Shown here piece after piece: positions 2,006 through 28,214 of a stretch of 32,000 nucleotides of DNA (position 1 is its first letter; each line of letters begins with the position of its first letter). The position numbers and the translations under genes were made by a program. The notes beneath the pieces were generated by a model. It saw only the letters and a program-made list of their open reading frames with translations, had not been told where the DNA came from and did no database searches. This DNA is from Microcystis aeruginosa NIES-843 (lineage in GTDB: Bacteria > Cyanobacteriota > Cyanobacteriia > Cyanobacteriales > Microcystaceae). The stretch covers positions 4,890,001 to 4,922,000 of the forward strand of contig NC_010296.1 in assembly GCF_000010625.1 (NCBI RefSeq). The letters run 5' to 3'.

Positions 2006-3124
2006 GTGCGACGGGGAAGACATAAAATTTTTATCGGCATGGCCCCGGGGGTCGGGAAAACTTACAAAATGCTGGAGGAGGGGCATAGCCTCAGAAAGCA
2101 GGGAACCGACGTGGTGATCGGACTTCTCGAAACCCACGGCAGGAAAGAGACCGCCGAAAAAGCCGGGGGGTTGGAAATCGTACCGAGAAAAATCCTAGAG
2201 AAAGAGGGATTCACTCTCTCGGAAATGGATACGGAAGCGATTATCGCCCGCTCGCCGCAGCTGTGTCTGATCGATGAATTAGCCCACACGAACGCGCCTA
2301 GTTCGGAGCGAGAGAAACGCTTTCAGGACGTGGAGATAATTTTATCCCGGGGAATCGATGTTTACTCGACAGTGAATATCCAGCATATCGAGAGTTTAAA
2401 CGATCTGGTCGCCCGAATCACCGGGGTGGTGGTGCGGGAGCGAATACCCGATCGAATTTTGGAGGAAGCTGATGAAGTGATCGTGGTAGATGTTACCGCC
2501 GAAACCCTAGAGGAAAGATTATTAGCGGGAAAAATCTACGCTCCCGAAAAGATCGAACAATCTTTAAATAATTTCTTTCAACGGCGTAATTTAATCGCCC
2601 TCCGGGAACTGGCCTTGCGCGAAGTGGCCGATACGGTAGAAGAAGAAGCGAGTAATTCGACCAAATTCATCGGTCAATCCTGTCCCGTTCACGAACGGGT
2701 ATTAGTCTGTATTTCCACCTATCCCAACTCTTTACGATTATTACGTCGGGGAGCGCGGATAGCGGGGTATATGAACGCGGAATTTTTCGTGATTTTCGTT
2801 GATAACCCCGAGCGCTTTCTCACCAGAGAGGAGGCTTTACATATCGAAACCTGCGAACGTTTATGTCGGGAATTCGAGGGGAAATTCTTACGGGTTAAAA
2901 GCTATCAGGTGGCGGCAGCGATCGCCGAGGTGGCCGAGCGCGAACGGATCACCCAGATCGTGATCGGGGAGAGCCTTCAATCGCGCTGGAAGCATTTCAT
3001 CAAAGGTTCTTTCACCCAAAAACTCATGCGCCTGATCTGGCAGAAAAATATCGATCTTCACATCATCGCCACCGATCCAAAAGTACCAATTAAAGACGCG
3101 CGAGCCAAGGGGGTGAAAAGATAA
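2006..3124 (+). CDS. kdpD: Short KdpD-type protein (KdpD N-terminal sensor domain plus USP-like domain, no histidine-kinase part)
   Basis: ORF with a GTG start preceded by aaaggagacgagc. The N-terminus HKIFIGMAPGVGKTYKMLEEG...VVIGLLETHGR is the KdpD N-terminal P-loop-like domain. The C-terminal half (ERVLVCIS...QIVIGES) is USP-like. No TM or HisKA/HATPase region is present. Confidence 0.75.
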   Translation: MRRGRHKIFIGMAPGVGKTYKMLEEGHSLRKQGTDVVIGLLETHGRKETAEKAGGLEIVPRKILEKEGFTLSEMDTEAIIARSPQLCLIDELAHTNAPSSEREKRFQDVEIILSRGIDVYSTVNIQHIESLNDLVARITGVVVRERIPDRILEEADEVIVVDVTAETLEERLLAGKIYAPEKIEQSLNNFFQRRNLIALRELALREVADTVEEEASNSTKFIGQSCPVHERVLVCISTYPNSLRLLRRGARIAGYMNAEFFVIFVDNPERFLTREEALHIETCERLCREFEGKFLRVKSYQVAAAIAEVAERERITQIVIGESLQSRWKHFIKGSFTQKLMRLIWQKNIDLHIIATDPKVPIKDARAKGVKR

Positions 3125-3134
3125 CTACCTTTCT

Positions 3135-3191
3135 CCCACTTCCCCACTCCCACTTCCCCACTTCCCCACTTCCCCACTTCCCCCTTCCCCT
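3135..3191. repeat. Tandem CCCCACTT-type octamer array (C4 tracts on + strand)
   Basis: Reads cccacttccccactcccacttccccacttccccacttccccacttccccc directly. It begins 11 nt after the kdpD stop. Confidence 0.9.
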
Positions 3192-3279
3192 CTCAAATCG
3201 GCAACGCCTTGGCTTCTCTGGGATGATATTCTAGGAGTTAATCTTTATGCAAATCCGTTGTCACAGAGGGAGTTAACTC

Positions 3280-3889: not shown

Positions 3890-4560
3890 ATTTGCTAGAA
3901 TGGTAGTCATGTATATAGAAAAAGTTCCTAACCGTAATTCCCCCCCGCCGTTCTTCGACCTGATTCTTACCGAGAAGGAGATCAAGTCAAAAAAAGAACC
4001 CTGGCCAACCTCTCAAAATTACCCGATGATATTATCGACAATTTGAAACTGGCTCTCAAAGGGGCGTTACAATCGAGATAAAAAGAAAGGGAAAACTCAG
4101 ATAGTTTTTGGCCTACTATGTTAGGCTAAGGCTTGTCCGATAGCGGTAGAAGTCTTTGAAGGAAACACATCCGATAGTGCCACCTTAGCCAGACAAATTG
4201 AGAAAGTCAGAAAAGGTTGGGGGATTGAGAATGTGGTCTGGGTAAGCGATAGAGGAATTTTAACCAACGTAAAAGAAAATCAATGAATTAGTAAAACCGC
4301 TAGAAGGATTAGACTATATTACTTTCGGACTTTGTTGGAAGACCTGGGGACAATTTGCTTGAATACAGTAGAATGTACGATTAGAGAGGGAAGTTATCGT
4401 TTTGCTAAGATAACTCGACCGACTTCCCTACAACAATCATGCGTTAGATTTATTAGGGGTTTCCCTGATTTGTACCCAGTAACGGGCTGGCGGAAATTCT
4501 CTTAATCCCTCCTACAGCATAGGTTATGGCCTTTTGTCAAGGGGGAATTCCAGGTATCAG
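3890..4560 (+). mobile_element. Internally deleted IS4/IS1634-like element, copy A (non-autonomous, transposase in fragments)
   Basis: Encodes MYIEKVPNRNSPPAVL...KKRTLANLSKLPDDIIDNLKLALKG, then a stop. A DDE-region fragment follows (VEVFEGNTSDSATLARQIEKVRKGWGIENVVWVSDRGILTN), then a C-terminal fragment (LNTVECTIREGSYRFAKITRP). It is a near-duplicate of 9848-10702. The family call is from memory of that N-terminus. Confidence 0.7.
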
Positions 4561-4699
4561 CAATTCCAAATTTAAGGTTTCATGACGTAAAAATCCTTAT
4601 GACAAGAGGGTTGTACAATTCTTAACATTTGGATTGATCTCTGAAATGGCGCAAAATCGTTCCGAATTTATTTTTGCTGTCCAGGTATTCAGGGCAGAG

Positions 4700-4821
4700 G
4701 AAGGGGAGAAGATTTTGGGCGGTGTCTATCGGGTGCGGTCTGCGTAGCAGAGTGCTTGGCGATCGCTTTCGAGGACAAACCAACCCGATCCAAGAGGCAG
4801 TAGGTCGGGGAGGATGTCAAC
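4700..4821 (+). mobile_element. Orphan IS200/IS605 right-end relic (tnpB 3' fragment plus candidate omega-RNA 3' module)
   Basis: Ends in a hairpin (cccgatc...ggtcggg) followed by gaggatgtcaac. That 12-mer is identical to the last 12 nt of the right end of the element at 25504-25540. The upstream attttgggcggtgtc...gcggtctgcgtag resembles the NIL-G-encoding tnpB 3' ends. No tnpB ORF remains. Confidence 0.4.
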
Positions 4822-4869
4822 GGAATAGGATCATTAAAATAGGTTTAAGGAAATAGTTGAACCAATAGG

Positions 4870-5640
4870 CTAATCTTGGTGCGTCCAAGAGCGATGAGCC
4901 AGACGCAAACCCCAATCGAGCAGATAACCAATCGCGCCAATAACGAGAATCACCGCCATCAACTCTGAATAAGCGAGTCGATCGCGTGTATCGAGAATAT
5001 AATAACCCAAACCCGCACTAACCCCCAGCATTTCCGCCGGTACAAGAACGATCCAGATAATACCTATAGCCAAACGGAAACCAGTTAGGAGATGGGAGAG
5101 GATCGCAGGCAGAATAATCTGGAAAACCGTTTCCCCTCGCGTAGCACAGAGACTGTGGGCTAAAGTCAACCAAGAGCGATCAACCGCATTAACCCCAGCA
5201 GCCGTATTGAGAAGGATCGGCCAGATAGCCGCCACCGTCAGCAAAAAATACACAGGTAGATCACCAATTCCCAAAACCATCACCGCTAAAGGCATCCAAG
5301 AAAGGGGCGAGATCATGCGTAGAAATTGAAATAGGGCCGACAAAGCCGATTCAAGGGAGCGATACAACCCGATTAATACCCCCAACGGCACACCGATGGC
5401 ACTAGCGAGAACCAAGCCCACAATAACCCGGCGGCAACTGGTGAGGATATGGGGCATAATCTCCCCCCCAACAAAAAGACGTAATAAAGCGACAAAAGAT
5501 CGCTCAGGGGAAAAATCATTTAAAATCGGGTTTGAGTGCCATAGAGGACTGGTAAATAGCCACCAGAGCAATAATCCCAAACCGATACCCCATAAGGGTA
5601 GTAAAGCTCTTGGCGGGGAGGTCAAAGATTGTGACTTCAT
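4870..5640 (-). CDS. ABC transporter permease, NitT/TauT family (NrtB/SsuC/TauC-like)
   Basis: A 256-aa polytopic membrane ORF, last gene of the operon. Its architecture is BPD-type, e.g. ALFQFLRMISPLSWMPLAVMVLGIG. It starts 12 nt after the binding-protein gene. Confidence 0.85.
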   Translation of the reverse strand: MKSQSLTSPPRALLPLWGIGLGLLLWWLFTSPLWHSNPILNDFSPERSFVALLRLFVGGEIMPHILTSCRRVIVGLVLASAIGVPLGVLIGLYRSLESALSALFQFLRMISPLSWMPLAVMVLGIGDLPVYFLLTVAAIWPILLNTAAGVNAVDRSWLTLAHSLCATRGETVFQIILPAILSHLLTGFRLAIGIIWIVLVPAEMLGVSAGLGYYILDTRDRLAYSELMAVILVIGAIGYLLDWGLRLAHRSWTHQD

Positions 5641-5652
5641 AGGTTCGGACCT

Positions 5653-6861
5653 TTAAAATTTGATCGTCTCGATGCGGGAGAGATTATTCGGTAAGCCGAA
5701 AGCTTTCGGTCCGCCCACCTGTTGCAAGGCATTACGGACAAAAGAGTCATCCACGAGATCCCGCGCCACCTGTCGGGGTTGCAGTTTTTGGAGAAAATCC
5801 GTATTTCCTTCCACCTGAGTGGTTTTGAGCAAGCGTACCAGTTCCTCCGTATAGGAAGGGAAAGGATAGGGCTGGAAATCGATCCGGTTGACCTGCCAAG
5901 CTGGATTCTCGATCGCCCCGTCTTTTTTATAGAAATTGCGATCATAGTAAGTAAGCGCCCGTTGCAATACCGGCAGCGGGTGAGGCGTATATTTTCCACC
6001 ATCTTTAGAGAGAATCCGGGCCACTTCCGAGCGATTGCTCCGGGACCAGAGTTGGGCTTTAACGAGGGCGTTTACCACCCTCTGCGTCCATTGTTTCCGT
6101 TGCCTAATATCCTCCTCGTGAACAAAGACAACGCAACAGGCGTGATTCTTCCAGACATCGCCGGTGAAACGGAGAACCCTACCGGTTTTGAGATTTTCCG
6201 CCGCCGCGTTGAAAGGTTCAGCAACGATATAACCACCGATGCTCTTATTGGCGAGGGCTGATACCATATCCGGGGGCGGGAGAACCACTAGATTAACCTC
6301 GTTAGAAGCGATCGGCGCGTCCTTGGGTTTGCGAACTATTTTCAGCCCGTTACGTTGTAAGAGTTGTTGCAAGACCAAATTATGAATCGAATACCAGAAA
6401 GGAACCGCGATCGTTTTACCTCCCAATTCCCTGGGATTTTCAATATCGGGAAGGACGGTGAGGGCTGAACCATTGGTATGGTTCCAAGCGACGATTTTAG
6501 CGGGGAAATTGCGCCCGTAACGAATCCAGATCGAGGTGGGAAAAAGAACGTGAATAACGTTCACCTGCCGAGCGAGAAAGGCCTCAACAATCTGCGCCCA
6601 AGAGCGGAATAGGCGCGGTTGTTCGGCAGTTAAACCTTCCGCTTGATAAAGTTTTCGCGAGTGGGCTACCAATAGGGGGGCGGCATCCGTAATCGGTAGA
6701 TAACCGATTTTCACAGGCTGATCGTTGGCATTGGCGTGAACAGGGAGATTCCAATTATCGGCGGCGATCGCTGCTCCGAAGGAACTGGTAAACAGTGCCG
6801 AAAGTTTCAGGAAATCTCGACGGCTCATGCCGCAACAAGCACAATTATGGTGTAGGTTCAT
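5653..6861 (-). CDS. ABC transporter substrate-binding protein, NrtA/CmpA/SsuA-like, Tat signal
   Basis: Twin-arginine signal MSRRDFLKLSALFTSSFGAAIAA; the real start may be the internal ATG at 6828. The motif PVKIGYLPITDAAPLLVAH is typical of NrtA/CmpA-type binding proteins. Confidence 0.85.
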   Translation of the reverse strand: MNLHHNCACCGMSRRDFLKLSALFTSSFGAAIAADNWNLPVHANANDQPVKIGYLPITDAAPLLVAHSRKLYQAEGLTAEQPRLFRSWAQIVEAFLARQVNVIHVLFPTSIWIRYGRNFPAKIVAWNHTNGSALTVLPDIENPRELGGKTIAVPFWYSIHNLVLQQLLQRNGLKIVRKPKDAPIASNEVNLVVLPPPDMVSALANKSIGGYIVAEPFNAAAENLKTGRVLRFTGDVWKNHACCVVFVHEEDIRQRKQWTQRVVNALVKAQLWSRSNRSEVARILSKDGGKYTPHPLPVLQRALTYYDRNFYKKDGAIENPAWQVNRIDFQPYPFPSYTEELVRLLKTTQVEGNTDFLQKLQPRQVARDLVDDSFVRNALQQVGGPKAFGLPNNLSRIETIKF

Positions 6862-6865
6862 GGAT

Positions 6866-7648
6866 TTACAGTGTCATGACAAGGGCTAATTCTTGAAAAA
6901 TTGACCGGCGTAGATCACTCAAAAGCTTGGCTGACTCGAAACGGGGTTTCGGCATCGAGATGGTCCATTCTCGGCGGATGCCCACCGGATGACGGCCCAT
7001 GAGAAGAACTCGATCGGCCACTAATAGGGCCTCGTCGATGTCGTGGGTAACGAGGAGAACCGTGCTGTTATAGAGAGCTATGACTTCTAGGAGGAGTTTT
7101 TGCATCTCGAAACGGGTGATCGCGTCGAGGGCGCTAAACGGCTCATCCAGGAGCAGGAGAGAGGGGCGGCGGGCGAGGACGCGGGCTAGAGAAACTCTCT
7201 GAGCCATACCGCCGGATAGTTGATGAGGATAAGCACGCTCGAAGCCATCTAGTTTGACGCTTTTAACGGCGATGTGAACCCTTTCCCGTAATTGCTGATG
7301 ATCGAGGCGGGGCATCCGCTTTAATTTCAAACCAAAAGCCACGTTTTGCCAAACGGTTAACCAAGGTAAAAGGGCGGGGGATTGAAAGACGATCGAGCTG
7401 CGGATGTCTGGGGCTTGTAGGGGTCGTGAGTGCAATTGTATTTCTCCGCCATCGGCACTTTGCAAACCAGCGGCGGTAGCAAGGAGGGTAGATTTACCGC
7501 AACCACTAGCCCCGAGCAAACAAACCACCTCACCGGAGCGCACCTGTAGGTTAATATCCTCAAAAACGGTACGGTAGCCATGGCGGGTTTTATAGCGTTT
7601 ATGGAGATTTTTGAGGGTGAGGACGGGGTAATCAGTGGCGATACTCAT
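6866..7648 (-). CDS. ABC transporter ATP-binding protein, NitT/TauT family (NrtD/SsuB/TauB-like)
   Basis: Walker A GASGCGKST, signature LSGGMAQR, Walker B LLLLDEPFSALD. Its start overlaps the upstream gene's stop by 4 nt (ATGA). Confidence 0.9.
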   Translation of the reverse strand: MSIATDYPVLTLKNLHKRYKTRHGYRTVFEDINLQVRSGEVVCLLGASGCGKSTLLATAAGLQSADGGEIQLHSRPLQAPDIRSSIVFQSPALLPWLTVWQNVAFGLKLKRMPRLDHQQLRERVHIAVKSVKLDGFERAYPHQLSGGMAQRVSLARVLARRPSLLLLDEPFSALDAITRFEMQKLLLEVIALYNSTVLLVTHDIDEALLVADRVLLMGRHPVGIRREWTISMPKPRFESAKLLSDLRRSIFQELALVMTL

Positions 7649-8760
7649 TCCCTCACCCCCGCTCGATCGAGTTCGCCAGTGAAAATTTTATCGCTAGAGG
7701 ACTGACGTTGTAACTCTCTTTCCAGTTGAATCAGGCTCGGAGTTAACACCGGTAAAAAGGCGACCTCCCGCAGCCGTCGCGCCGTGTCGCTATTACGGAA
7801 ATAGCCTTTTCCTCCCTTAATTTCCGCTTCTAACCCTACGGATTCCACCGCTAACCGGGTAATGTCCACTCTGAGGGTGAATAGTTCGCGTGTTCGTGCG
7901 AGATCGAAGCTTTCTAGGGTGCTGAATTGCACGATTGTCTTTTCTAGACGAGTCAGACGCTCCCGGGCGAAGAAATAACGATCGCTGGCTACCGCTGCCT
8001 TTCCCCCTAAATTTTTCTCCGTCTCCCCAAGGGATTTACGCGTAATGCCAAGGGCCAGTCCGCATTGTAACAGCAAGAAACAGGGGCGGACTGAGGGTAA
8101 AAATTTTGCTGCTTCCAAGCTGATAATCCAGTCGTGAGATAACTGAACTCGATCGAATTCAAGGGTACTGGTGCGGGAAGCTTGTAAACCCAATAATTGT
8201 AGGTCTTCACCCCGTTTTAACCCCTCTGCGAAGGAGGGAAGGGCGAGGATAAGAGTTTGTCCAGATCTAGTTTGAGCGGCAACGGCCACTATAAATTCTC
8301 CCTTAGAGTCGAGATTAGAGGCCCAGGGCAGGAAGCCATTAACAGTGACGTTTTCTCCCTCGATCTTTGCTTGTAAACGCAGCTCCTCGATACCGCCGAG
8401 GTACTTCATCGCGTTAGAGAGTCCTGTCGCTCCGGCTATCTCTCCCTTGAGAACAGCCGGTAGAATTTTGTTTTGTAGGTAAGTGTTATTACTGGCCGCC
8501 AGATATTGAATGAAGACGCGCTGACACCAGAAAACAAAACCGGTGGTGAGGCAGCATTGGGACACAGAGGAGATCGCCTCTACTGCCTGTAATAAGGAGC
8601 CACCCCGACCCCCTAAGCTTTCAGGTATAGCATAGCCGAACCAGCCCGATTCTCCTAGCTTGGTTAGGGCCAAACCGACGTTGAGATTAGCTGTACCGTT
8701 GTTGAGGTCAGTGGCTCTTTCTTCTAGAAAAGAACTGATTTCGGAGCCTCGAGCGAGCAT
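7645..8760 (-). CDS. Acyl-CoA dehydrogenase-fold flavoprotein (possibly a DszC/SfnB/MsuC-type monooxygenase; function open)
   Basis: A 371-aa ORF with ACAD-like three-domain layout: an N-terminal alpha region, a middle region GEIAGATGLSN...VNGFLPWASN, and a C-terminal helical region ARRLREVAFLPVLTPS. It is translationally coupled to the ABC ATPase. Confidence 0.7.
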   Translation of the reverse strand: MLARGSEISSFLEERATDLNNGTANLNVGLALTKLGESGWFGYAIPESLGGRGGSLLQAVEAISSVSQCCLTTGFVFWCQRVFIQYLAASNNTYLQNKILPAVLKGEIAGATGLSNAMKYLGGIEELRLQAKIEGENVTVNGFLPWASNLDSKGEFIVAVAAQTRSGQTLILALPSFAEGLKRGEDLQLLGLQASRTSTLEFDRVQLSHDWIISLEAAKFLPSVRPCFLLLQCGLALGITRKSLGETEKNLGGKAAVASDRYFFARERLTRLEKTIVQFSTLESFDLARTRELFTLRVDITRLAVESVGLEAEIKGGKGYFRNSDTARRLREVAFLPVLTPSLIQLERELQRQSSSDKIFTGELDRAGVRE

Positions 8761-8772
8761 AATTGTTCTCTC

Positions 8773-9303
8773 CTAGGGGTGAATATTTTCAATCGAGGTC
8801 AAACTATCTATAGGTGCGCCGACCACTTCTCTGGCTCTTTTCACCGCCGCTTCATCGGGACTATCGTAGAAACAGAGACATTTACTCAAGTCTTCGCAAA
8901 TATATGTACGCTCGAAACTGACTTCAGGCACTTGAGCATAAAGGGGGGTTTTCTCCGCTTTTCGTTGCAGGTAAGTTTCCATCGTTAGCCCCGGAGGTAA
9001 ATTCCACTGTACTAGATAGTTGGCTTTGTCTTTGCGCTCTCGCACAGTGGCTAAGTCCTGCCCAATCAAGCGCATTTCCTTGATTAGTTGCCAACTTAGC
9101 CCAGCGTTTTCTAGTACTTGTTCGAGGGAGGCGCGATCGATCGCTTTGATAATCAGGAATAACCGCCCCTCTGTTTCACCGATTAGGGCTTCGATTAACT
9201 CTCCCTGCGATTTTGATGCGAGTGTGGCAATGCGCTCCAATATCTCGCTCACCTCTTCTTTTGTCCTTTCTTGTCGATCATCCTCTACTAGATATAGAGT
9301 CAT
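8773..9303 (-). CDS. Tandem DUF4242 (SCO4226-like, ferredoxin-fold) protein
   Basis: Both halves fit the DUF4242 pattern as I recall it. Half 1: MTLYLVE...EGRLFLIIKAIDRASLEQVLENAGL. Half 2: YLVQWNLPPGLTMETYL...ERTYICEDLSKCLCFYDSPDEAAVKRAREVVGAPIDSL. It is the first gene of the operon. Confidence 0.6.
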   Translation of the reverse strand: MTLYLVEDDRQERTKEEVSEILERIATLASKSQGELIEALIGETEGRLFLIIKAIDRASLEQVLENAGLSWQLIKEMRLIGQDLATVRERKDKANYLVQWNLPPGLTMETYLQRKAEKTPLYAQVPEVSFERTYICEDLSKCLCFYDSPDEAAVKRAREVVGAPIDSLTSIENIHP

Positions 9304-9847
9304 AATTCATCTAAAATACATTTACAATACATTTGAGTTTACTTTCTTTGAGAAAAAAAAGCAATATTTTCAAGAGCCTGAAAACGAGGTGACACGGGAG
9401 TAGATGGTTCAAGACCGTTTCGCTCAAGTCCAGGCGAGAACCCTTGGCTTGGGTGATATGCGTGACCTTCTGAGGCAGCTGAGACTCACAGTCTGTGTAA
9501 ACTTCGACTGAGTTCTTGTATCTCTGAACTTCCTCCATACATATCTACTACAAGAGCCGAAAACCCTTATCCATCAATGGATACACCCATTAACTTCTCT
9601 TGATGTACCCATGGAATTTGTAATACTTCTGGTTCTTCGGTTTTTGTTATGCAATGGAGGGGGGTTATAAGGGATGAAACCCTTATATATAAAGACATTG
9701 CTTCGATTTTTGCCAATTGTTTTCGATCTAGAACGAGCTAATCAATTAAGTCTCTTGCCAGATAAGGATTTAGTCGATTTATGCCACCCGATCAAACCAT
9801 ACCAAGTAACGAAGAACCATACTTCTTAATAGACCAGAACTCTCTCC

Positions 9848-10702
9848 ATTTGCTAGAATGGTAGTCATGTATATAGAAAAAGTTCCTAACCGTAATTCCC
9901 CCCCGCCGTTCTTCGACCTGATTCTTACCGAGAAGGAGATCAAGTCAAAAAAAGAACCCTGGCCAACCTCTCAAAATTACCCGATGATATTATCGACAAT
10001 TTGAAACTGGCTCTCCAAGGGGCGTTACAATCGAGATAAAAAGAAAGGGAAAACTCAGATAGTTTTTGGCCTACTATGTTAGGCTAAGGCTTGTCCGATA
10101 GCGGTAGAAGTCTTTGAAGGAAACACATCCGATAGTGCCACCTTAGCCAGACAAATTGAGAAAGTCAGAAAAGGTTGGGGGATTGAGAATGTGGTCTGGG
10201 TAAGCGATAGAGGAATTTTAACCAACGTAAAAGAAAATCAATGAATTAGTAAAACCGCTAGAAGGATTAGACTATATTAGGACTTACGCATTGACAGGAT
10301 TGACCAAATATGAGGTATGGGTTTCAGGCATTTTAACGTGATTTTTTGATGACTTTTGAGCGACCGCTATCGTTGGGAAGTTAATCGCCAAAAGTCTGAA
10401 ACGACCGATTTTCATTCATGCACATCATGGTGAATTTGTACAGTGCGTAAGTCCTATATATTACTTTCGGACTTTATTGGAGGACTTGGGGACGATTTCC
10501 TTGAACACAGTAGAATGTACGATTAGAGAGGGAAGTTATCGTTTTGCTAAGATAACTCGACCCACTGAACTGCAACAATCATGCGTTAGATTGATTGGGG
10601 GTTTCCTTAATTTATACCCAGTAACGGGGGAGCAGAAATTCTCTCAATTCCTCCTACAGCACAGGTTATGGCCTTTTGTCAACGGGGAAGTCCAGTTATA
10701 GC
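9848..10702 (+). mobile_element. Internally deleted IS4/IS1634-like element, copy B (same derivative as copy A, carrying a nested MITE)
   Basis: 9848-10277 matches 3890-4319 with 1 mismatch in 430 nt by manual alignment. After the 179-bp insert, 10462-10702 matches 4320-4560 at only about 87 percent. Same orientation as copy A. Confidence 0.7.
10278..10456. mobile_element. 179-bp MITE nested in IS copy B
   Basis: The terminal inverted repeats are TAGGACTTACGCAtTG and CAgTGCGTAAGTCCTA. A 5-bp TATAT is duplicated at 10273-10277 and 10457-10461. Copy A has the uninterrupted site gacTATATtactttcgg at 4312-4328. Confidence 0.8.
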
Positions 10703-11233
10703 GGCTAAACGGGCCAGATAGAAGCTAGTAATAGTTTTAGCATCGATCGATTCTCCCCGTGCGATCGCCGATTCCATTTCCTCAAAACTCATCAAAACCA
10801 CTTCCAGATCTTCATCGACATCTTGAGCGGGGGGCAAGCTTAATTTTTCCAGATCCTGGGCTAGAAAAGCATAGATGTATTCATCGGAATAACCTGGTGC
10901 CAGGGCAAATTTACCCAAAGATTGCCAATTGTGCGCCCGATAGCCCGCTTCTTCCTCTAATTCTCGTTTTACCGTCGTAGCGGGGTCTTCTCCTTCATCG
11001 ATCGTTCCGGCGGGAAATTCCAGAATTCGAGCTTGCAAACTAAATCGATACTGACGTACTAAAACCAATTGACCTTCCTTGGTGATTGGAACTGCTAAAG
11101 CGCCACCCGGATGACGGACACATTCCCATTCTCCCTCGACACCGTTAGGTAAACGCAGTTTCGAGACTTCAAATTGAAAGACGCGACCTTGATAAAAAAG
11201 ACGTTGTTGGAGAAATTGAGGCGGTTCAGACAT
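10679..11233 (-). CDS. NUDIX hydrolase (ADP-ribose pyrophosphatase-like)
   Basis: Nudix box GTIDEGEDPATTVKRELEEEAGY. The last ~8 codons (AITGLPR, stop) lie inside the right end of IS copy B. Confidence 0.85.
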   Translation of the reverse strand: MSEPPQFLQQRLFYQGRVFQFEVSKLRLPNGVEGEWECVRHPGGALAVPITKEGQLVLVRQYRFSLQARILEFPAGTIDEGEDPATTVKRELEEEAGYRAHNWQSLGKFALAPGYSDEYIYAFLAQDLEKLSLPPAQDVDEDLEVVLMSFEEMESAIARGESIDAKTITSFYLARLAAITGLPR

Positions 11234-11394
11234 AGAAAATTTGCAACTAGGACTTTAAGAATTAATATCAACAAATGTTGCTTTTGTCACCGGTGTTAGG
11301 AAGCGGGTAGAATTATCGTCTAACGGCCAAGGAGAGATTCAGGTTATAATGGGAAATGCTGTCTTTACAGGTTAAATCTTTTTCGAGAAACCCC

Positions 11395-16455: not shown

Positions 16456-17694
16456 TTGTACATCACGAAACGAACGACAGTGATAACGCTTACCTACCAG
16501 TACAAACTAAAGGTAAACAGACAACAGGAACGGGAGATCATCCACATTCTTGATGTTGCCAAAAGCGTTTACAATTACGCGCTGGCGGAGCGAAAAGATT
16601 GGTTGAACTCTCGAAAGTGTCTTGCGGATCGTTGTTCGTTAGTTTCCGAGTACATAATTCCTGCGGATGAACCCTATCCTAATTACTTCGTTCAAGCTAA
16701 AAATCTAACGGAAGCTAAAAAAGTTTACCCGATATTAAAGACGGTTAACGCTCAAGTTTTACAGCAAGTCTTAAAAACTTTAGATAAGGCGTTTAACCAG
16801 ATGAAGTCGAAAGGCTTCGGCTTTCCTAGATTCAAAAAAAAGATGCGAAGTTTTATTTTTCCTGCGCTGTCAAAAAACTTTCTAGGGGATGGATGTTTGA
16901 ATTTTCCACAATTAGGAAAAATTAGCATACGGCCATCTAGAGAATACCCGTCTGGGTTCGAGCCTAAACAAGCTCGAATTATCCAAAAAGCGTCGGGATT
17001 TTACGTTTCGGTTTCCTTCCAATCTACGGAATTAGTTCCCGATATGACAGTAGGGAAGACCTGTTTAGGAATTGACGCGGGAATTGAAAGTTTTGTCGCT
17101 ACTTCACGGGAAGATTTAATCAAAGCCCCTCGATTTTTGTTGAAAGTACAGAGTAAGCTTAAATTGCTACAAAGACGCTTGAAACATCAAGTCAAAGGCT
17201 CGAACAATTGGTTAAAACTCCAAGAGAAGATAGCAAGATTACACGAGAAAGTGTCTAATACTCGTAGAGATTGGCATTTTAAGTTAGCTCATTACCTTGG
17301 CGATTTTGCTGATAATATCTTCGTTGAGGATATTAACTTCGTTTCCTGGTCTAGAGGAATCGTTAGAAAACAATCTCTAGATTCGGGTATCGGTAGTTTT
17401 ATTAACGAGATACTACCGTTTGTTGTTTGGAAACGGGGAAAATATTATCTTAAAGTCGATAAAAACGGAACTTCCCAGGATTGTCCGAATTGTGGCGCGA
17501 TTACCGGCAAAAAGTCCTTATCGGAAAGAGTCCACCGGTGTGATTCTTGCGGTAACATCGAACCAAGAGACACGGCATCAGCGAAGGTAATCGAGAACCG
17601 AGGAAAAAATGCGGTCGGACTGACCGTGTTAGAAAACGCTCGCGGAGGCGATCTGACGGGGATCGACCGGGTTAAACCAGGTCGATCTAGTTAA
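16456..17694 (+). CDS. tnpB: TnpB (IS605 OrfB) RNA-guided nuclease family protein, E1
   Basis: RuvC contexts CLGIDAGIES, IFVEDINF and PRDTASAKVI. Zinc finger CPNCG...CDSCG. The likely start is GTG 16480 (VITLTYQYKLKV), given the promoter position. Confidence 0.9.
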   Translation: MYITKRTTVITLTYQYKLKVNRQQEREIIHILDVAKSVYNYALAERKDWLNSRKCLADRCSLVSEYIIPADEPYPNYFVQAKNLTEAKKVYPILKTVNAQVLQQVLKTLDKAFNQMKSKGFGFPRFKKKMRSFIFPALSKNFLGDGCLNFPQLGKISIRPSREYPSGFEPKQARIIQKASGFYVSVSFQSTELVPDMTVGKTCLGIDAGIESFVATSREDLIKAPRFLLKVQSKLKLLQRRLKHQVKGSNNWLKLQEKIARLHEKVSNTRRDWHFKLAHYLGDFADNIFVEDINFVSWSRGIVRKQSLDSGIGSFINEILPFVVWKRGKYYLKVDKNGTSQDCPNCGAITGKKSLSERVHRCDSCGNIEPRDTASAKVIENRGKNAVGLTVLENARGGDLTGIDRVKPGRSS

Positions 17695-25508: not shown

Positions 25509-25700
25509 CATCCTCGCCGCCGTAAAACGGACGGCGATTCCCAAACCTCACGATTTGGGTTTCTGCTTCTTTCCCGAAGGATTTTTCGCACCTGCCTTAA
25601 CAGATTTACTCTGTTCTGGTCTTATGGTCGCTCTACAGACTGACACCGCAAGCCCTGCGGCCAAAATGTTTTTACTAGCGTTAATATCTCGGTCATGGTG
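25504..25700 (-). ncRNA. Candidate omega-RNA scaffold of E2
   Basis: The tnpB 3' end plus the right end, ending in hairpin plus gaggatgtcaac. The 5' limit is a guess. Confidence 0.4.
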
Positions 25701-26735
25701 CGTCCCACAGTCTGGACAGTCCCACTCTCGAACATTTAACGGCATTTTCTCAGCAATATACCCGCAATTACTACATCTTTTAGAGCTAGGAAACCATCTA
25801 TCTATTTCGATGTAGTTTCTCCCATACCAACGGCATTTATAGGCTAATTGTCGAGTGATTTCTCCCCAGCTTACATCAGATATTGCCTGAGATAATTTCG
25901 GGTTTTTGACCATATTCTTGACGGCTAAATTCTCAACCACAATCGTTTGGTTTTCACGAACTAATTGAGTGGTTAGCTTGTGTAAATGGTCTTTTCTACT
26001 ATCGGTGATTTGAGCGTGAATCTTGGCTACTTTGATTCTTGCTTTTTCCCGATTTTTTGAGCCTTTCTGTTTTCGAGAAAGACTTTTTGGGTCCTTTCGC
26101 AGTCTCCGATAATGCTTTTTAAAGTGCTTAGGATTAGATACTTTATCGCCATCGCTGGTAATTACTAGGCTACTAATTCCTAAGTCAATTCCGATGGCTT
26201 TATCGGTTGGGGGTAATGGCTGGATTGTTGGGTCATCAAATCTTATTGAAATATGCCAACGTCCAGAAGGATGTAATCTGACTGTTACTGTGCTTGGTTC
26301 ACAGCTTTCTGGTATTTGTCTTGACCATCGAATAGGTAAGGGTTCTGTGCATTTAGCTAAATAGATTTGTTTGTCTTTGAATTTAAAAGCAGATTTGGTA
26401 AATTCGGCACTTCCTCCTTGATGTTTTTTCTTAAAGTTAGGATACTTAGTACGACCAGCAAAGAAATTAGTAAAAGCTGTTTGTAAATGTCTTAACCCTT
26501 GTTGTAAAGGAACACAGCTTACTTCATTGAGAAACTCTAATTCTTCTTGCTTTTTCCAATCGGTTAGCATTGAAGAAGTTTGAGCATATCCTACTCTTTC
26601 TTGCTTTTCGTACCAAGCTTGTGTTCGTTCGTGGAGAGCTTTGTTGTAAACTAATCTTACACAGCCCAATGTGCGCCGCAATAGCGACTCTTGTGTTGGT
26701 GTGGGGTAAAATCGAAACGAATAGGCTTTTTCCAT
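25548..26735 (-). CDS. tnpB: TnpB (IS605 OrfB) RNA-guided nuclease family protein, E2
   Basis: RuvC contexts AIGIDLGISS, IVVENLAV and DRDINASKNI. Zinc finger CSNCG...CPDCG. Confidence 0.9.
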   Translation of the reverse strand: MEKAYSFRFYPTPTQESLLRRTLGCVRLVYNKALHERTQAWYEKQERVGYAQTSSMLTDWKKQEELEFLNEVSCVPLQQGLRHLQTAFTNFFAGRTKYPNFKKKHQGGSAEFTKSAFKFKDKQIYLAKCTEPLPIRWSRQIPESCEPSTVTVRLHPSGRWHISIRFDDPTIQPLPPTDKAIGIDLGISSLVITSDGDKVSNPKHFKKHYRRLRKDPKSLSRKQKGSKNREKARIKVAKIHAQITDSRKDHLHKLTTQLVRENQTIVVENLAVKNMVKNPKLSQAISDVSWGEITRQLAYKCRWYGRNYIEIDRWFPSSKRCSNCGYIAEKMPLNVREWDCPDCGTHHDRDINASKNILAAGLAVSVCRATIRPEQSKSVKAGAKNPSGKKQKPKS

Positions 26736-26990: not shown

Positions 26991-28214
26991 ATGTTTGTAC
27001 TAGAATACAAGGTTAAGCCAAAACCTAATCAGATAGAAGGCATTAACGAAGCAATACGGACAACCCAATTTGTTCGGAATAAAGTCCTGCGTTATTGGAT
27101 GGATAATCAGGGTGTTGGCAAAACAGAGTTATTTCGATACAACACAGCATTAAGGAAAGAGTTTAAATTTGTTGATGATTTAAACTCCCATGCTTGCCAG
27201 ACTGCTGTAGAAAGAACCTTGCGGGCAATTACTCGGTTTTACGATAATTGCCAAAATAAAGTTAAAGGAAAGAAAAACTACCCTAAGTTTAAAAAACATT
27301 CCCGTTCCGTTGAGTATAAAGTATCTGGATGGAAGCTATCAAAAGATAAACGCCATATTACCTTTACAGATAAAAAAGGTATTGGCACTCTTAAGTTGAT
27401 TGGTTCTAGAGATATTAATTACTATCAACCAGACCAGATTAAACGGGTAAGAATCCTGAATCGTGCCGATGGTTATTATGTGCAGTTTTGCCTTAAATTA
27501 GACCCCAGAGACACGGTTAAGCCTTTAACACCTTCCCAGAAAGCCACTGGGATTGATGTCGGATTAAAGTTTTTCTTAGTAGATAGCGAAGGCCATCAAA
27601 TTGATTGTCCGAACTACTATCGAAAAGCTGAAAAACAACTAAACCGATTAAACAAAAAAAAGTCAAAGAAATACCGTAAGGGTAAAAAACAATCTCGTAA
27701 TTATCACAAAGCTAGAAAGCGATATGCTCGGAAACATTTAAGAGTAAGTAGGCAACGAGAAGAGTTTGTCAAAAGTGTGGCACTCCGTTTAGTTAAGTCT
27801 AACGACTTAATCGTCTATGAAAACTTGAATATCAAAGGCATGGTCAAAAATCGTCATTTAGCCAAGTCGATAACCGATGCAGGATGGTCTGTTTTTAGGC
27901 AATGGCTAGAGTATTTTGGGGACAAATACGGCAAGTTAACTATAGCTGTCTCACCTCATAATACGTCTCAAAATTGTTCTAATTGTGGACAAAAAGTCCA
28001 AAAGTCGCTATCTACTCGAACCCATGTTTGTCCTCATTGTGGATACACAGATTGTCGAGACAGAAACGCCGCTTTAAACATCTTGCAAAAGGGATTAAGT
28101 AGCGTGGGGCGCACGCAAACTTTAAACGCTTCGGGAGAGATTCCCTCTTGGTTGGTTGGAGAAATCCTGCTTGCTAACGGAGACTCAATGAACGAAGAAT
28201 CCCCGTCTCTTTAG
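26991..28214 (+). CDS. tnpB: TnpB (IS605 OrfB) RNA-guided nuclease family protein, E3
   Basis: RuvC contexts ATGIDVGLKF, IVYENLNI and CRDRNAALNI. Zinc finger CSNCG...CPHCG. The stop codon sits inside the right-end hairpin. Confidence 0.9.
   Translation: MFVLEYKVKPKPNQIEGINEAIRTTQFVRNKVLRYWMDNQGVGKTELFRYNTALRKEFKFVDDLNSHACQTAVERTLRAITRFYDNCQNKVKGKKNYPKFKKHSRSVEYKVSGWKLSKDKRHITFTDKKGIGTLKLIGSRDINYYQPDQIKRVRILNRADGYYVQFCLKLDPRDTVKPLTPSQKATGIDVGLKFFLVDSEGHQIDCPNYYRKAEKQLNRLNKKKSKKYRKGKKQSRNYHKARKRYARKHLRVSRQREEFVKSVALRLVKSNDLIVYENLNIKGMVKNRHLAKSITDAGWSVFRQWLEYFGDKYGKLTIAVSPHNTSQNCSNCGQKVQKSLSTRTHVCPHCGYTDCRDRNAALNILQKGLSSVGRTQTLNASGEIPSWLVGEILLANGDSMNEESPSL

Follow-up and report, generated by a model that had tools for sequence, protein, structure and literature searches.

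Two annotated gene clusters come closest to the locus described here. The first is the srp cluster on plasmid pANL of Synechococcus elongatus PCC 7942, in which genes for a DUF4242 protein, an acyl-CoA dehydrogenase (ACAD)-like protein, an ATP-binding cassette (ABC) transporter ATPase, a substrate-binding protein, and a permease follow one another in this order. The name srp stands for "sulfur-regulated plasmid-encoded" (PMC8049743), and srpL and srpM are the binding-protein and permease genes of the cluster, with cysK as srpD (PMC13125312, 2026). The second is PA2331–PA2327 of Pseudomonas aeruginosa, which the literature on this organism treats as one operon. It has the same make-up (ACAD-like protein, ATPase, NrtA-like binding protein, and permease), with a small cysteine protein first; this accessory protein is AhpD-like with a CxxC motif, not DUF4242. 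PA2331 is annotated with an alkylhydroperoxidase domain and PA2330 with an ACAD domain, and the expression of the operon tracks that of sulfur genes in the literature. In this study, we analyzed 32,000 nucleotides (nt) of the chromosome of Microcystis aeruginosa NIES-843 (NC_010296.1, positions 4,890,001 to 4,922,000; this whole stretch is called the window), which carries the same five genes as the srp cluster, in the same order and with proteins of 50–65% identity, between positions 9303 and 4870. Unlike the srp cluster, the Microcystis copy is chromosomal and stands alone between two relics of an IS1634-family insertion sequence (IS). Proteins of other Pseudomonas species are 41–63% identical to those of the window. 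With moderate confidence, we read the Microcystis operon as a sulfur-starvation scavenging operon and as one copy of a widespread, biochemically uncharacterised module.

The earlier note on this stretch had stated that no pathway with this gene combination was described. In part this was too strong, as the gene set itself is not new to databases: it is already annotated as srpL/srpM, and PA2327–PA2331 has the same make-up. What stands is that no published biochemical function was found. The literature search on PA2327–PA2331 returned expression lists only, and no substrate, activity, or mechanism of the module was found in the literature searched.

The five open reading frames (ORFs) lie on the minus strand, from 9303 down to 4870, where the earlier note had placed them. 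They encode a 176-aa DUF4242 protein (8773–9303, matched by PF14026), a 371-aa ACAD-fold protein (7645–8760), a 260-aa ABC transporter ATPase (6866–7648), a 402-aa periplasmic substrate-binding protein with an NrtA/SsuA-type fold (5653–6861), and a 256-aa ABC transporter permease (4870–5640). As read from the sequence, the stop codon TAG of the first gene is separated from the next ATG by 12 nt containing a Shine–Dalgarno-like GGAGAG, and the 371-aa and ATPase genes share a 4-nt ATGA overlap (7648–7645). The ATPase gene ends with TAA, followed by 4 nt and the ATG of the binding-protein gene, which itself ends with TAA, followed by 12 nt and the ATG of the permease gene. The five genes are therefore one tightly coupled operon, as had been proposed from the 4-nt overlap and the 4- to 12-nt gaps. 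It was also correctly noted that the usual partners of such transporters are missing; no nir, nar, cynS, or ssuD gene is present anywhere in the 32-kb window. Upstream, the non-coding region 9304–9847 of the same strand, which holds no ORF of at least 80 aa, is the expected place of a promoter or regulatory site. Scans of 4400–9900 for consensus promoters and terminators gave scores not above those of shuffled controls and identified no upstream element. A riboswitch of the guanidine (ykkC) type was considered for this region and ruled out, the Rfam scan of the window having returned no family at threshold. Only the first 64–208 nt upstream of the start codon are common to other Microcystis genomes, which also hold the relatives of the window proteins at 95–97% identity.

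To describe the module beyond Microcystis, 88 loci were scanned by script, 80 of them from species-representative genomes, plus 8 more. In 78 of the 88, the ACAD-like gene is followed by those for the ATPase, the binding protein, and the permease, with order and orientation unchanged. A gene for a DUF4242 protein leads in 23 loci (cyanobacteria, Armatimonadota, Nitrospira, Clostridia, and Bacillus), and 57 loci (Pseudomonas, Paraburkholderia, and Janthinobacterium) begin with a gene for an AhpD-like protein. The DUF4242-led form also occurs in Thermomicrobium, the AhpD-like partner also in Deinococcus, Roseomonas, Bartonella, and Variovorax, and an OsmC-like partner takes this place in more distant variants. 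An AraC-type regulator gene is located upstream in the Pseudomonas protegens, Paraburkholderia, and Variovorax loci. At least 557 relatives are found in species-representative genomes, the ACAD-like family comprises 325 clusters (50% identity) at E ≤ 1e-30, and the module is present in at least seven phyla. The arrangement of DUF4242, ACAD-like, and ABC transporter genes is thus strongly conserved elsewhere. One locus, in Pseudomonas gregormendelii, has the AhpD-like and ACAD-like genes with no transporter genes detected within the scanned 5 kb downstream, and may be a decayed or rearranged copy.

The link to sulfur comes from the surroundings and the expression of these relatives. The pANL cluster directly follows a chromate transporter gene (presumably srpC), cysK, and a gamma-glutamyltransferase gene; it is plasmid-borne among these, a beta-carbonic-anhydrase-like gene, and srpGHI, and lies a few kb from cysK, a serine acetyltransferase gene, and srpI. 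In six Nostocales genomes (Calothrix, Scytonematopsis, and Aetokthonos; loci L024, L025, and L028–L031), an ACAD-like paralogue without a transporter is divergent from a phycocyanin alpha/beta gene pair located ~300–450 bp upstream. In 11 of the 12 predicted phycocyanins, Met1 is the only methionine, with one cysteine in alpha and two in beta, as expected for bilin attachment; one beta product has a third cysteine. Such a sulfur-depleted phycocyanin is said to be the sulfur-starvation-specific cpc3 set of Calothrix, reportedly described by Mazel and Marliere in 1989. A cysA-type ATPase gene or a rhodanese gene is located near these Nostocales loci, as are PucC-like and 2-oxoglutarate-dependent oxygenase genes. 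Similarly, in Paraburkholderia the module adjoins an SrpI-type encapsulin, its cysteine desulfurase, and a rhodanese, and rhodanese genes flank or come after the module in Limnothrix, in Pseudosulfitobacter, and on a metagenomic contig carrying a gene fusion discussed below. Moreover, in a P. aeruginosa mutant in which 71% of the changed genes are sulfur-related, the expression of PA2328–PA2330 is lowered along with that of cys, ssu, and tau genes (PMC8466066). In Staphylococcus aureus, a DUF4242 gene adjoins ssuBAC, which is upregulated when sulfur is lacking and when cymR is mutated; the Staphylococcus data are limited to the DUF4242 gene and the adjacent transporter. The earlier note had proposed scavenging of an organosulfur or organonitrogen compound, and its sulfur half is backed by this genomic context and by the transcriptome papers. 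By analogy, we infer that the operon would be under sulfur regulation in Microcystis as well. Furthermore, cysteine and methionine make up 0.8% of the mature binding protein compared with 3.3% of the other window proteins, which, in this small sample, fits sulfur sparing.

Several observations weigh against a sulfur-scavenging role. The rest of the 32-kb window, which consists of housekeeping genes and three TnpB genes, is without any sulfur gene. PA2330 and SA0165 of S. aureus are putative orthologues of window proteins, assigned by their annotation and by the order of the genes. In addition, activation by quorum sensing, control by AmpR, and induction by sodium hypochlorite (NaOCl) are reported for the P. 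aeruginosa operon, which would fit a role in oxidant stress. AhpD-like and OsmC-like proteins are classically peroxide reductases, and the fold class of the binding protein is best known for nitrate, bicarbonate, and cyanate. Finally, one distant variant of the module, with a sigma-54 regulator and a cyanase, stands in a nitrogen context.

The enzyme of the module is the 371-aa protein. Its AlphaFold model, built on 20 homologues, has a predicted local distance difference test score (pLDDT) of 92.3, and the best Foldseek matches are short-chain acyl-CoA dehydrogenase (SCAD), isovaleryl-CoA dehydrogenase (IVD), and butyryl-CoA dehydrogenase, with template modeling (TM) scores of ~0.8 at 14–19% identity. 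The ACAD fold proposed for this neighbor of the importer is thereby upheld, and it is the three-domain form. In Pfam, the ACAD N-terminal domain PF02771 (38.8 bits) is the sole match at E ≤ 0.01; the middle domain PF02770 and the C-terminal domain PF00441 were not detected. The family profile matches IVD at 5e-22 and butyryl-CoA dehydrogenase at ~1e-22. In the profile alignment, LPWASNL aligns with FWITNG of IVD, and GGKGY (GGxAY/GGxxY in the family) aligns with GGNGY; the protein therefore probably binds flavin in the manner of ACADs. In contrast, the catalytic Glu is lost. Glu254 of IVD aligns with a variable position (Cys227 or Val224), and the Glu at the Glu376 position of the medium-chain type is replaced by Thr340-Pro341-Ser342. 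Pro341 is invariant in both family alignments (A2 and A4); Thr340 and Ser342 do not vary in A2 and hardly vary in A4. Similarly, in a HMMER alignment, I-G-E-G-T of the Thermus ACAD 1WS9 stands opposite V-T-P-A of a distant family member. Arg81 is invariant in the ACAD-like family. The searches thus did not place the protein among genuine acyl-CoA dehydrogenases with a catalytic Glu, and although it shares their fold, the absence of this Glu from its sequence sets it apart from them.

The earlier note had instead grouped the 371-aa protein with DszC, SfnB, and MsuC. According to this explanation, it would be a two-component reduced-flavin monooxygenase that releases sulfite from an organosulfonate, sulfone, or sulfinate, and the AhpD-like, OsmC-like, or DUF4242 partner would remove peroxide from uncoupled turnover. 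The operon logic is indeed that of ssu, msu, and sfn, with an importer beside a flavoenzyme, and weak similarity to SfnB (1e-9) and DszC is seen in hidden Markov model (HMM) comparisons, as is a match of the family profile to the DszC and MsuC structures at ~1e-8. Peroxidase-type partners would also be in keeping with the known induction of antioxidant proteins alongside flavin monooxygenases when cells are starved of sulfate. However, the curated cut-offs of the SfnB and DszC families are both missed (TIGR04022, 37.8 against 430.9; NF043015, 15.2 against 850), and PF08028 gives no match. Both the profile and the structural model are closer to true ACADs, the ACAD-type WxSN and GGxxY motifs are retained, and no flavin reductase gene belongs to the module in the 88 loci, the lone exception being a rubredoxin-reductase fusion in one distant variant. 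By these comparisons, the protein falls outside both the acyl-CoA dehydrogenases and the known sulfur monooxygenase families, and we consider the monooxygenase explanation unlikely.

The leading gene encodes the small cysteine-bearing partner of this enzyme. PF14026 matches the 176-aa protein with 74.8 bits (gathering cut-off 28.5) at residues 96–170 alone, and the N-terminal half has no similarity in BLASTP or Pfam. The AlphaFold model (pLDDT 91) contains two consecutive beta-alpha-beta-beta-alpha-beta (ferredoxin-like) units, and Foldseek matches it to two-domain alpha+beta barrel proteins with TM scores of ~0.55–0.6. The description of this protein as a tandem DUF4242 thus holds for the structural model, which shows two units, while at the level of sequence DUF4242 is seen in the C-terminal half only. 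The ~175-aa form is a coherent family with 47–77% identity in cyanobacteria, Armatimonadota, Clostridia, and Bacillales. Cys136, Cys142, and Cys144, in the motif YVCEDxSKCLCFYD, are invariant in 17 sequences from four phyla. The replacements carry cysteines as well: the AhpD-like partners, of the carboxymuconolactone-decarboxylase family, have HGCxFCxxGH, and the OsmC-like partners have GxC(L/V)AVG. A natural 532-aa fusion of a tandem DUF4242 protein with an ACAD-like protein (P0363) is encoded after rhodanese and OsmC genes on a 38-kb contig of JGI metagenome 3300056388. Given this fusion and the co-conserved gene order, the enzyme and the small cysteine protein therefore appear to work together, with both tied to the importer. 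The fusion protein keeps only the middle cysteine of the CX5CXC motif.

The nature of these partners bears on a second explanation, in which the module serves in defence against oxidants or electrophiles (organic peroxides, hypochlorous acid [HOCl], or hypothiocyanite) or in a quorum-sensing function, and the sulfur link is a side effect of thiol oxidation. AhpD-like and OsmC-like partners would suit such a function, as would the reported quorum-sensing activation of the P. aeruginosa operon, the listing of PA2328–PA2331 as upregulated under NaOCl, and the AhpC/TSA gene that adjoins the operon in Raphidiopsis and S. elongatus. It would nevertheless leave unexplained why 78 of the 88 loci include an ABC importer that is dedicated and of high affinity and whose binding protein is predicted to be exported via Tat, and it does not account for the sulfur region of pANL, the sulfur-depleted phycocyanin, cysA, rhodanese, or the SrpI encapsulin. 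Moreover, HOCl itself triggers a sulfur-starvation response. We therefore regard a primary role in defence or quorum sensing as quite improbable.

The remaining three proteins form the importer, and all of them match the NitT/TauT class, in agreement with the class assigned before. The ATPase is matched by PF00005 (ABC_tran, 2e-31), with TauB, SaoA, NrtC/D, and SsuB as the best NCBIfam models. The permease is matched by PF00528 (BPD_transp_1, 82.8 bits), with SaoP, NrtB, TauC, and SsuC as the best NCBIfam models. The substrate class is left open by these matches because every equivalog cut-off was missed. The Sao system (Haft's selenoprotein-linked ABC system), a top NCBIfam match, was rejected as an identity since its scores are far below the cut-offs, and the resemblance is at the level of the class. 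The binding protein is matched by NMT1_2 (152.5 bits, cut-off 24.7), with SsuA_fam as the best NCBIfam model and with 3UN6, NrtA (2G29), and CmpA as relatives in the PDB.

As had been proposed, the binding protein is predicted to be exported through the twin-arginine translocation (Tat) pathway. The motif SRRDFLK precedes a hydrophobic stretch (SRRDFLKLSALFTSSFGAAIAA), and the RR pair is kept in at least 80 of the 88 orthologues; the Pfam model TAT_signal scores 16.2, below its cut-off of 22.7. Directly before the twin-arginine motif lies a Cys-rich peptide, MNLHHNCACCGM (6829–6861). This stretch (CxCCG) takes the form NCxCCG in cyanobacteria, MC(L/M)DD..CC in Pseudomonas, NCC in Armatimonadota, and GCCGHDG in Pseudosulfitobacter, and the start codon was placed at 6861 because of this conservation before RR. 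A Cys-rich leader is odd for a probable sulfur-starvation protein.

The ligand pocket was compared with that of NrtA, whose ligand residues are reported to be Trp102, Gln155, His196, and Lys269 in the 2G29 paper. The site was mapped through the alignment, where an offset of 29 reproduces W102, Q155, H196, G240, and K269. In this numbering, these five positions correspond to W88, S132, H160, Ala, and C243 of the window protein. W88, H160, and C243 are present in 88 of 88 orthologues, H240 and C242 in 87, and S132 in 86. His240-Ala-Cys242-Cys243 (6133–6144) thus stands where NrtA has His-Pro-Glu-Lys269, and the residues of the S. aureus structure 3UN6 that correspond to this HxCC site are Tyr-Cys-Cys. 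A vicinal disulfide between Cys242 and Cys243 may be present where the ligand binds.

These substitutions bear directly on a third explanation, that the operon imports a nitrogen or carbon oxyanion (nitrate, nitrite, cyanate, or bicarbonate) in the manner of NrtABCD, CynABD, or CmpABCD and that the two other genes are unrelated passengers. The binding protein and the permease do have NrtA/NrtB-type matches, and the distant variant combines cynS with a sigma-54 regulator. However, although the Trp and His of the NrtA/CmpA site are kept, Gln155 is replaced by Ser132 and Lys269 by the invariant Cys243, and an identity as a nitrate or bicarbonate binder was rejected. The nitrate permease equivalog scores 141.5 against a cut-off of 209. 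Furthermore, the supposed passenger genes accompany those of the transporter in several phyla and are linked to them by translational coupling, and none of nir, nar, and cynS accompanies the operon in the window. A nitrate, bicarbonate, or cyanate role of the binding protein is judged unlikely from the pocket residues because the oxyanion-binding Lys is replaced by an invariant His-x-Cys-Cys, and an oxyanion importer with passenger genes is a very improbable reading of the operon as a whole. Acquisition or homeostasis of nickel or another metal, suggested by the Pfam family name, the three invariant cysteines of DUF4242, and the HxCC motif and Cys-rich leader of the binding protein, hardly deserves consideration: with the SCO4226 nickel equivalog NF033706 the score reaches 18 where 125 is the cut-off, so that neither a SCO4226 identity nor the metal-binding description given earlier is borne out, an AhpD-like protein replaces DUF4242 in most lineages, no metal regulator is conserved beside the module, and NitT/TauT transporters are not known to import metals.

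Returning to sulfur scavenging, we infer the flavin binding, the cysteine roles, and the chemistry of the module as follows. The folded binding protein would be exported via Tat and, with the Trp and His of NrtA kept and an invariant Cys-Cys instead of the anion-binding Lys, would capture a small solute that contains sulfur and is probably anionic. Import of the captured solute would fall to the permease and ATPase of the NitT/TauT type. In the cytoplasm, the ACAD-fold protein would act on this solute and not on an acyl-CoA, and is presumed to be a sulfur-releasing enzyme. The cysteine-bearing partner (tandem DUF4242 here, AhpD-like with CxxC or OsmC-like elsewhere) may serve as a thiol redox partner or as an acceptor of sulfane sulfur, and the released sulfur would enter cysteine synthesis.

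The most specific substrate candidate is a C1-sulfur compound of the thiocyanate or carbonyl sulfide (COS) type. In several relatives, a clade-D beta-carbonic-anhydrase-like gene (an orthogroup of 70–83% identity) is embedded between the binding-protein and permease genes, namely in Leptolyngbyaceae, the uncultured bin L018, Raphidiopsis, and Alkalinema; in Pannus this gene adjoins the operon, and pANL carries it within the sulfur region (L090, 4872–5450). Among the loci of the relatives, it was located at 11352–11933 of L017 and 11198–11824 of L020, and also in L018, L021, and L016; it is absent from the Microcystis window. Its relatives in the PDB include carbonic anhydrases, COS hydrolase (5e-27), and carbon disulfide hydrolase (3e-26). 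A TauE/SafE-type anion exporter gene is also present in two of these operons (L017 and L018). On a Burkholderia plasmid, a distant variant comprises genes for a sigma-54 regulator, an OsmC-like protein, an ACAD-like protein, a rubredoxin-reductase fusion, and an NrtA-type binding protein (HPCC), followed by those for a permease, an ATPase, a cyanase (cynS), and a metallo-beta-lactamase (MBL)-fold protein resembling persulfide dioxygenase or glyoxalase II. On a Pseudosulfitobacter plasmid, the gene for a binding protein 50% identical to that of the window is accompanied by OsmC-like, ACAD-like, rhodanese, and DsbA-like genes. Together, these associations suggest that breakdown of the substrate would yield sulfane sulfur and a C1 heterocumulene (cyanate or COS). 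Given the embedded beta-carbonic-anhydrase genes, the cyanase/MBL variant, and the rhodanese, thiocyanate is therefore an obvious candidate.

In such a route, the NrtA/CynA-like binding protein with its Cys-Cys pocket would capture thiocyanate, and the flavoprotein and its cysteine partner would split it to cyanate and protein-bound sulfane sulfur, or would proceed via COS. The cyanate branch would amount to a flavin thiocyanate dehydrogenase, unlike the known copper enzyme. Where present, the homologue of the COS hydrolase clade of beta-carbonic anhydrases, the rhodanese, the cyanase, and the persulfide-dioxygenase-like protein could complete the route. S. elongatus reportedly grows on thiocyanate as a sulfur source, which a cysR mutant is said not to do, and CysR is said to control the srp genes of pANL. 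A literature search combining thiocyanate with an ACAD-like protein, OsmC, or cyanase found no such system described. That the module is an undescribed route for the use of thiocyanate or a related C1-sulfur compound as a sulfur source is a tentative proposal, which we put forward as possible rather than probable.

The immediate surroundings of the Microcystis operon deserve separate description. The operon is bracketed by a ~670-bp remnant of a transposase gene of the IS1634 family, which is present as two direct copies at 3890–4561 and 9848–10703. The relic is frameshifted and internally deleted. Pfam gave no match on short translated pieces of it, and NCBIfam then gave an IS1634 transposase fragment (NF033559, 3e-15). 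The first 432 nt of the two copies are 99.8% identical, and the remainder 89%. The right copy is split by a 185-nt insert (10272–10456) with 29-nt imperfect inverted ends. The other fetched Microcystis loci have no relic beside the operon, save for one partial match of 84% in L014, and the bracketing is strain-specific because the other Microcystis genomes are without copies there. The relic-operon-relic order is a composite-transposon-like arrangement or a substrate for deletion. Elsewhere in the window, three TnpB/IS605 OrfB-type genes, with OrfB_IS605 and Cas12f1-like TNB domains, are located at 16456–17694 (+), 25548–26735 (−), and 26991–28214 (+). A stand-alone KdpD N-terminal-domain gene adjoins the left repeat, within the 2006–3124/3280–3387 stretch, and just downstream of it lie short C-rich repeats of the CCCACTTCCCCACT type with spacings of 8 and 14 nt (3121–3197). 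A 35-aa ORF beside the left repeat resembles psbM by eye. In another S. elongatus strain (L001), a KdpD N-terminal-domain gene is located ~4 kb from a chromosomal copy of the module, and its presence near both copies hints at old synteny.

Alternative sulfur scavenging is well worked out for sulfonates and sulfate esters. The module described here is found in hundreds of species of at least seven phyla, including three model organisms, yet it is without an assigned substrate or chemistry. Once its chemistry is worked out, the ACAD superfamily would gain a new enzyme activity and DUF4242 a function. It could also explain a sulfur source of cyanobacteria, including bloom-forming Microcystis, and of pseudomonads that is invisible to current annotation. 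This hidden source may be thiocyanate, which would be relevant to mining waste and to airway fluid.

Three described types of system can be set beside the module. The first comprises the cyn operons, cynABDS of cyanobacteria and cynTSX of Escherichia coli, in which cyanase occurs with an NrtA-type binding protein and ABC importer and, in E. coli, with a beta-carbonic anhydrase. Some relatives of the module resemble them in having a beta-carbonic-anhydrase-like gene inside the operon, and the distant variant does so through its cynS. Unlike the cyn operons, the window and its close orthologues have no cyanase and show the Cys-Cys pocket, and the ACAD-like and cysteine-bearing proteins are without counterparts in cyn operons. 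The second is the 3-sulfinopropionyl-CoA desulfinase AcdDPN7 (PDB 5AF7), an enzyme with the ACAD fold in which the catalytic Glu is likewise missing and which sets free an inorganic sulfur species. The 371-aa protein matches the desulfinases weakly (NF042439, 2.6e-7 with a score of 29.7 against a cut-off of 600; 5AF7, 7e-7). Moreover, the substrate of AcdDPN7 is a CoA thioester supplied by separate enzymes, whereas the module has no CoA ligase or transferase.

The third type is that of the desulfonation operons. Like the module, ssuEADCB, tauABCD, msuEDC, and the sfnB/dszC-type operons combine a NitT/TauT-class importer with a flavoenzyme, and the module is probably expressed under sulfur limitation as they are. 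Furthermore, MsuC, SfnB, and DszC share the ACAD fold with the 371-aa protein. In contrast to these operons, the enzyme of the module fails the SfnB and DszC models and carries ACAD-type flavin motifs, and no reductase gene accompanies it. In addition, the binding protein of the module is longer and NrtA-like, with predicted Tat export and an HxCC pocket, and the cysteine-bearing partner is one of the core components of the module.

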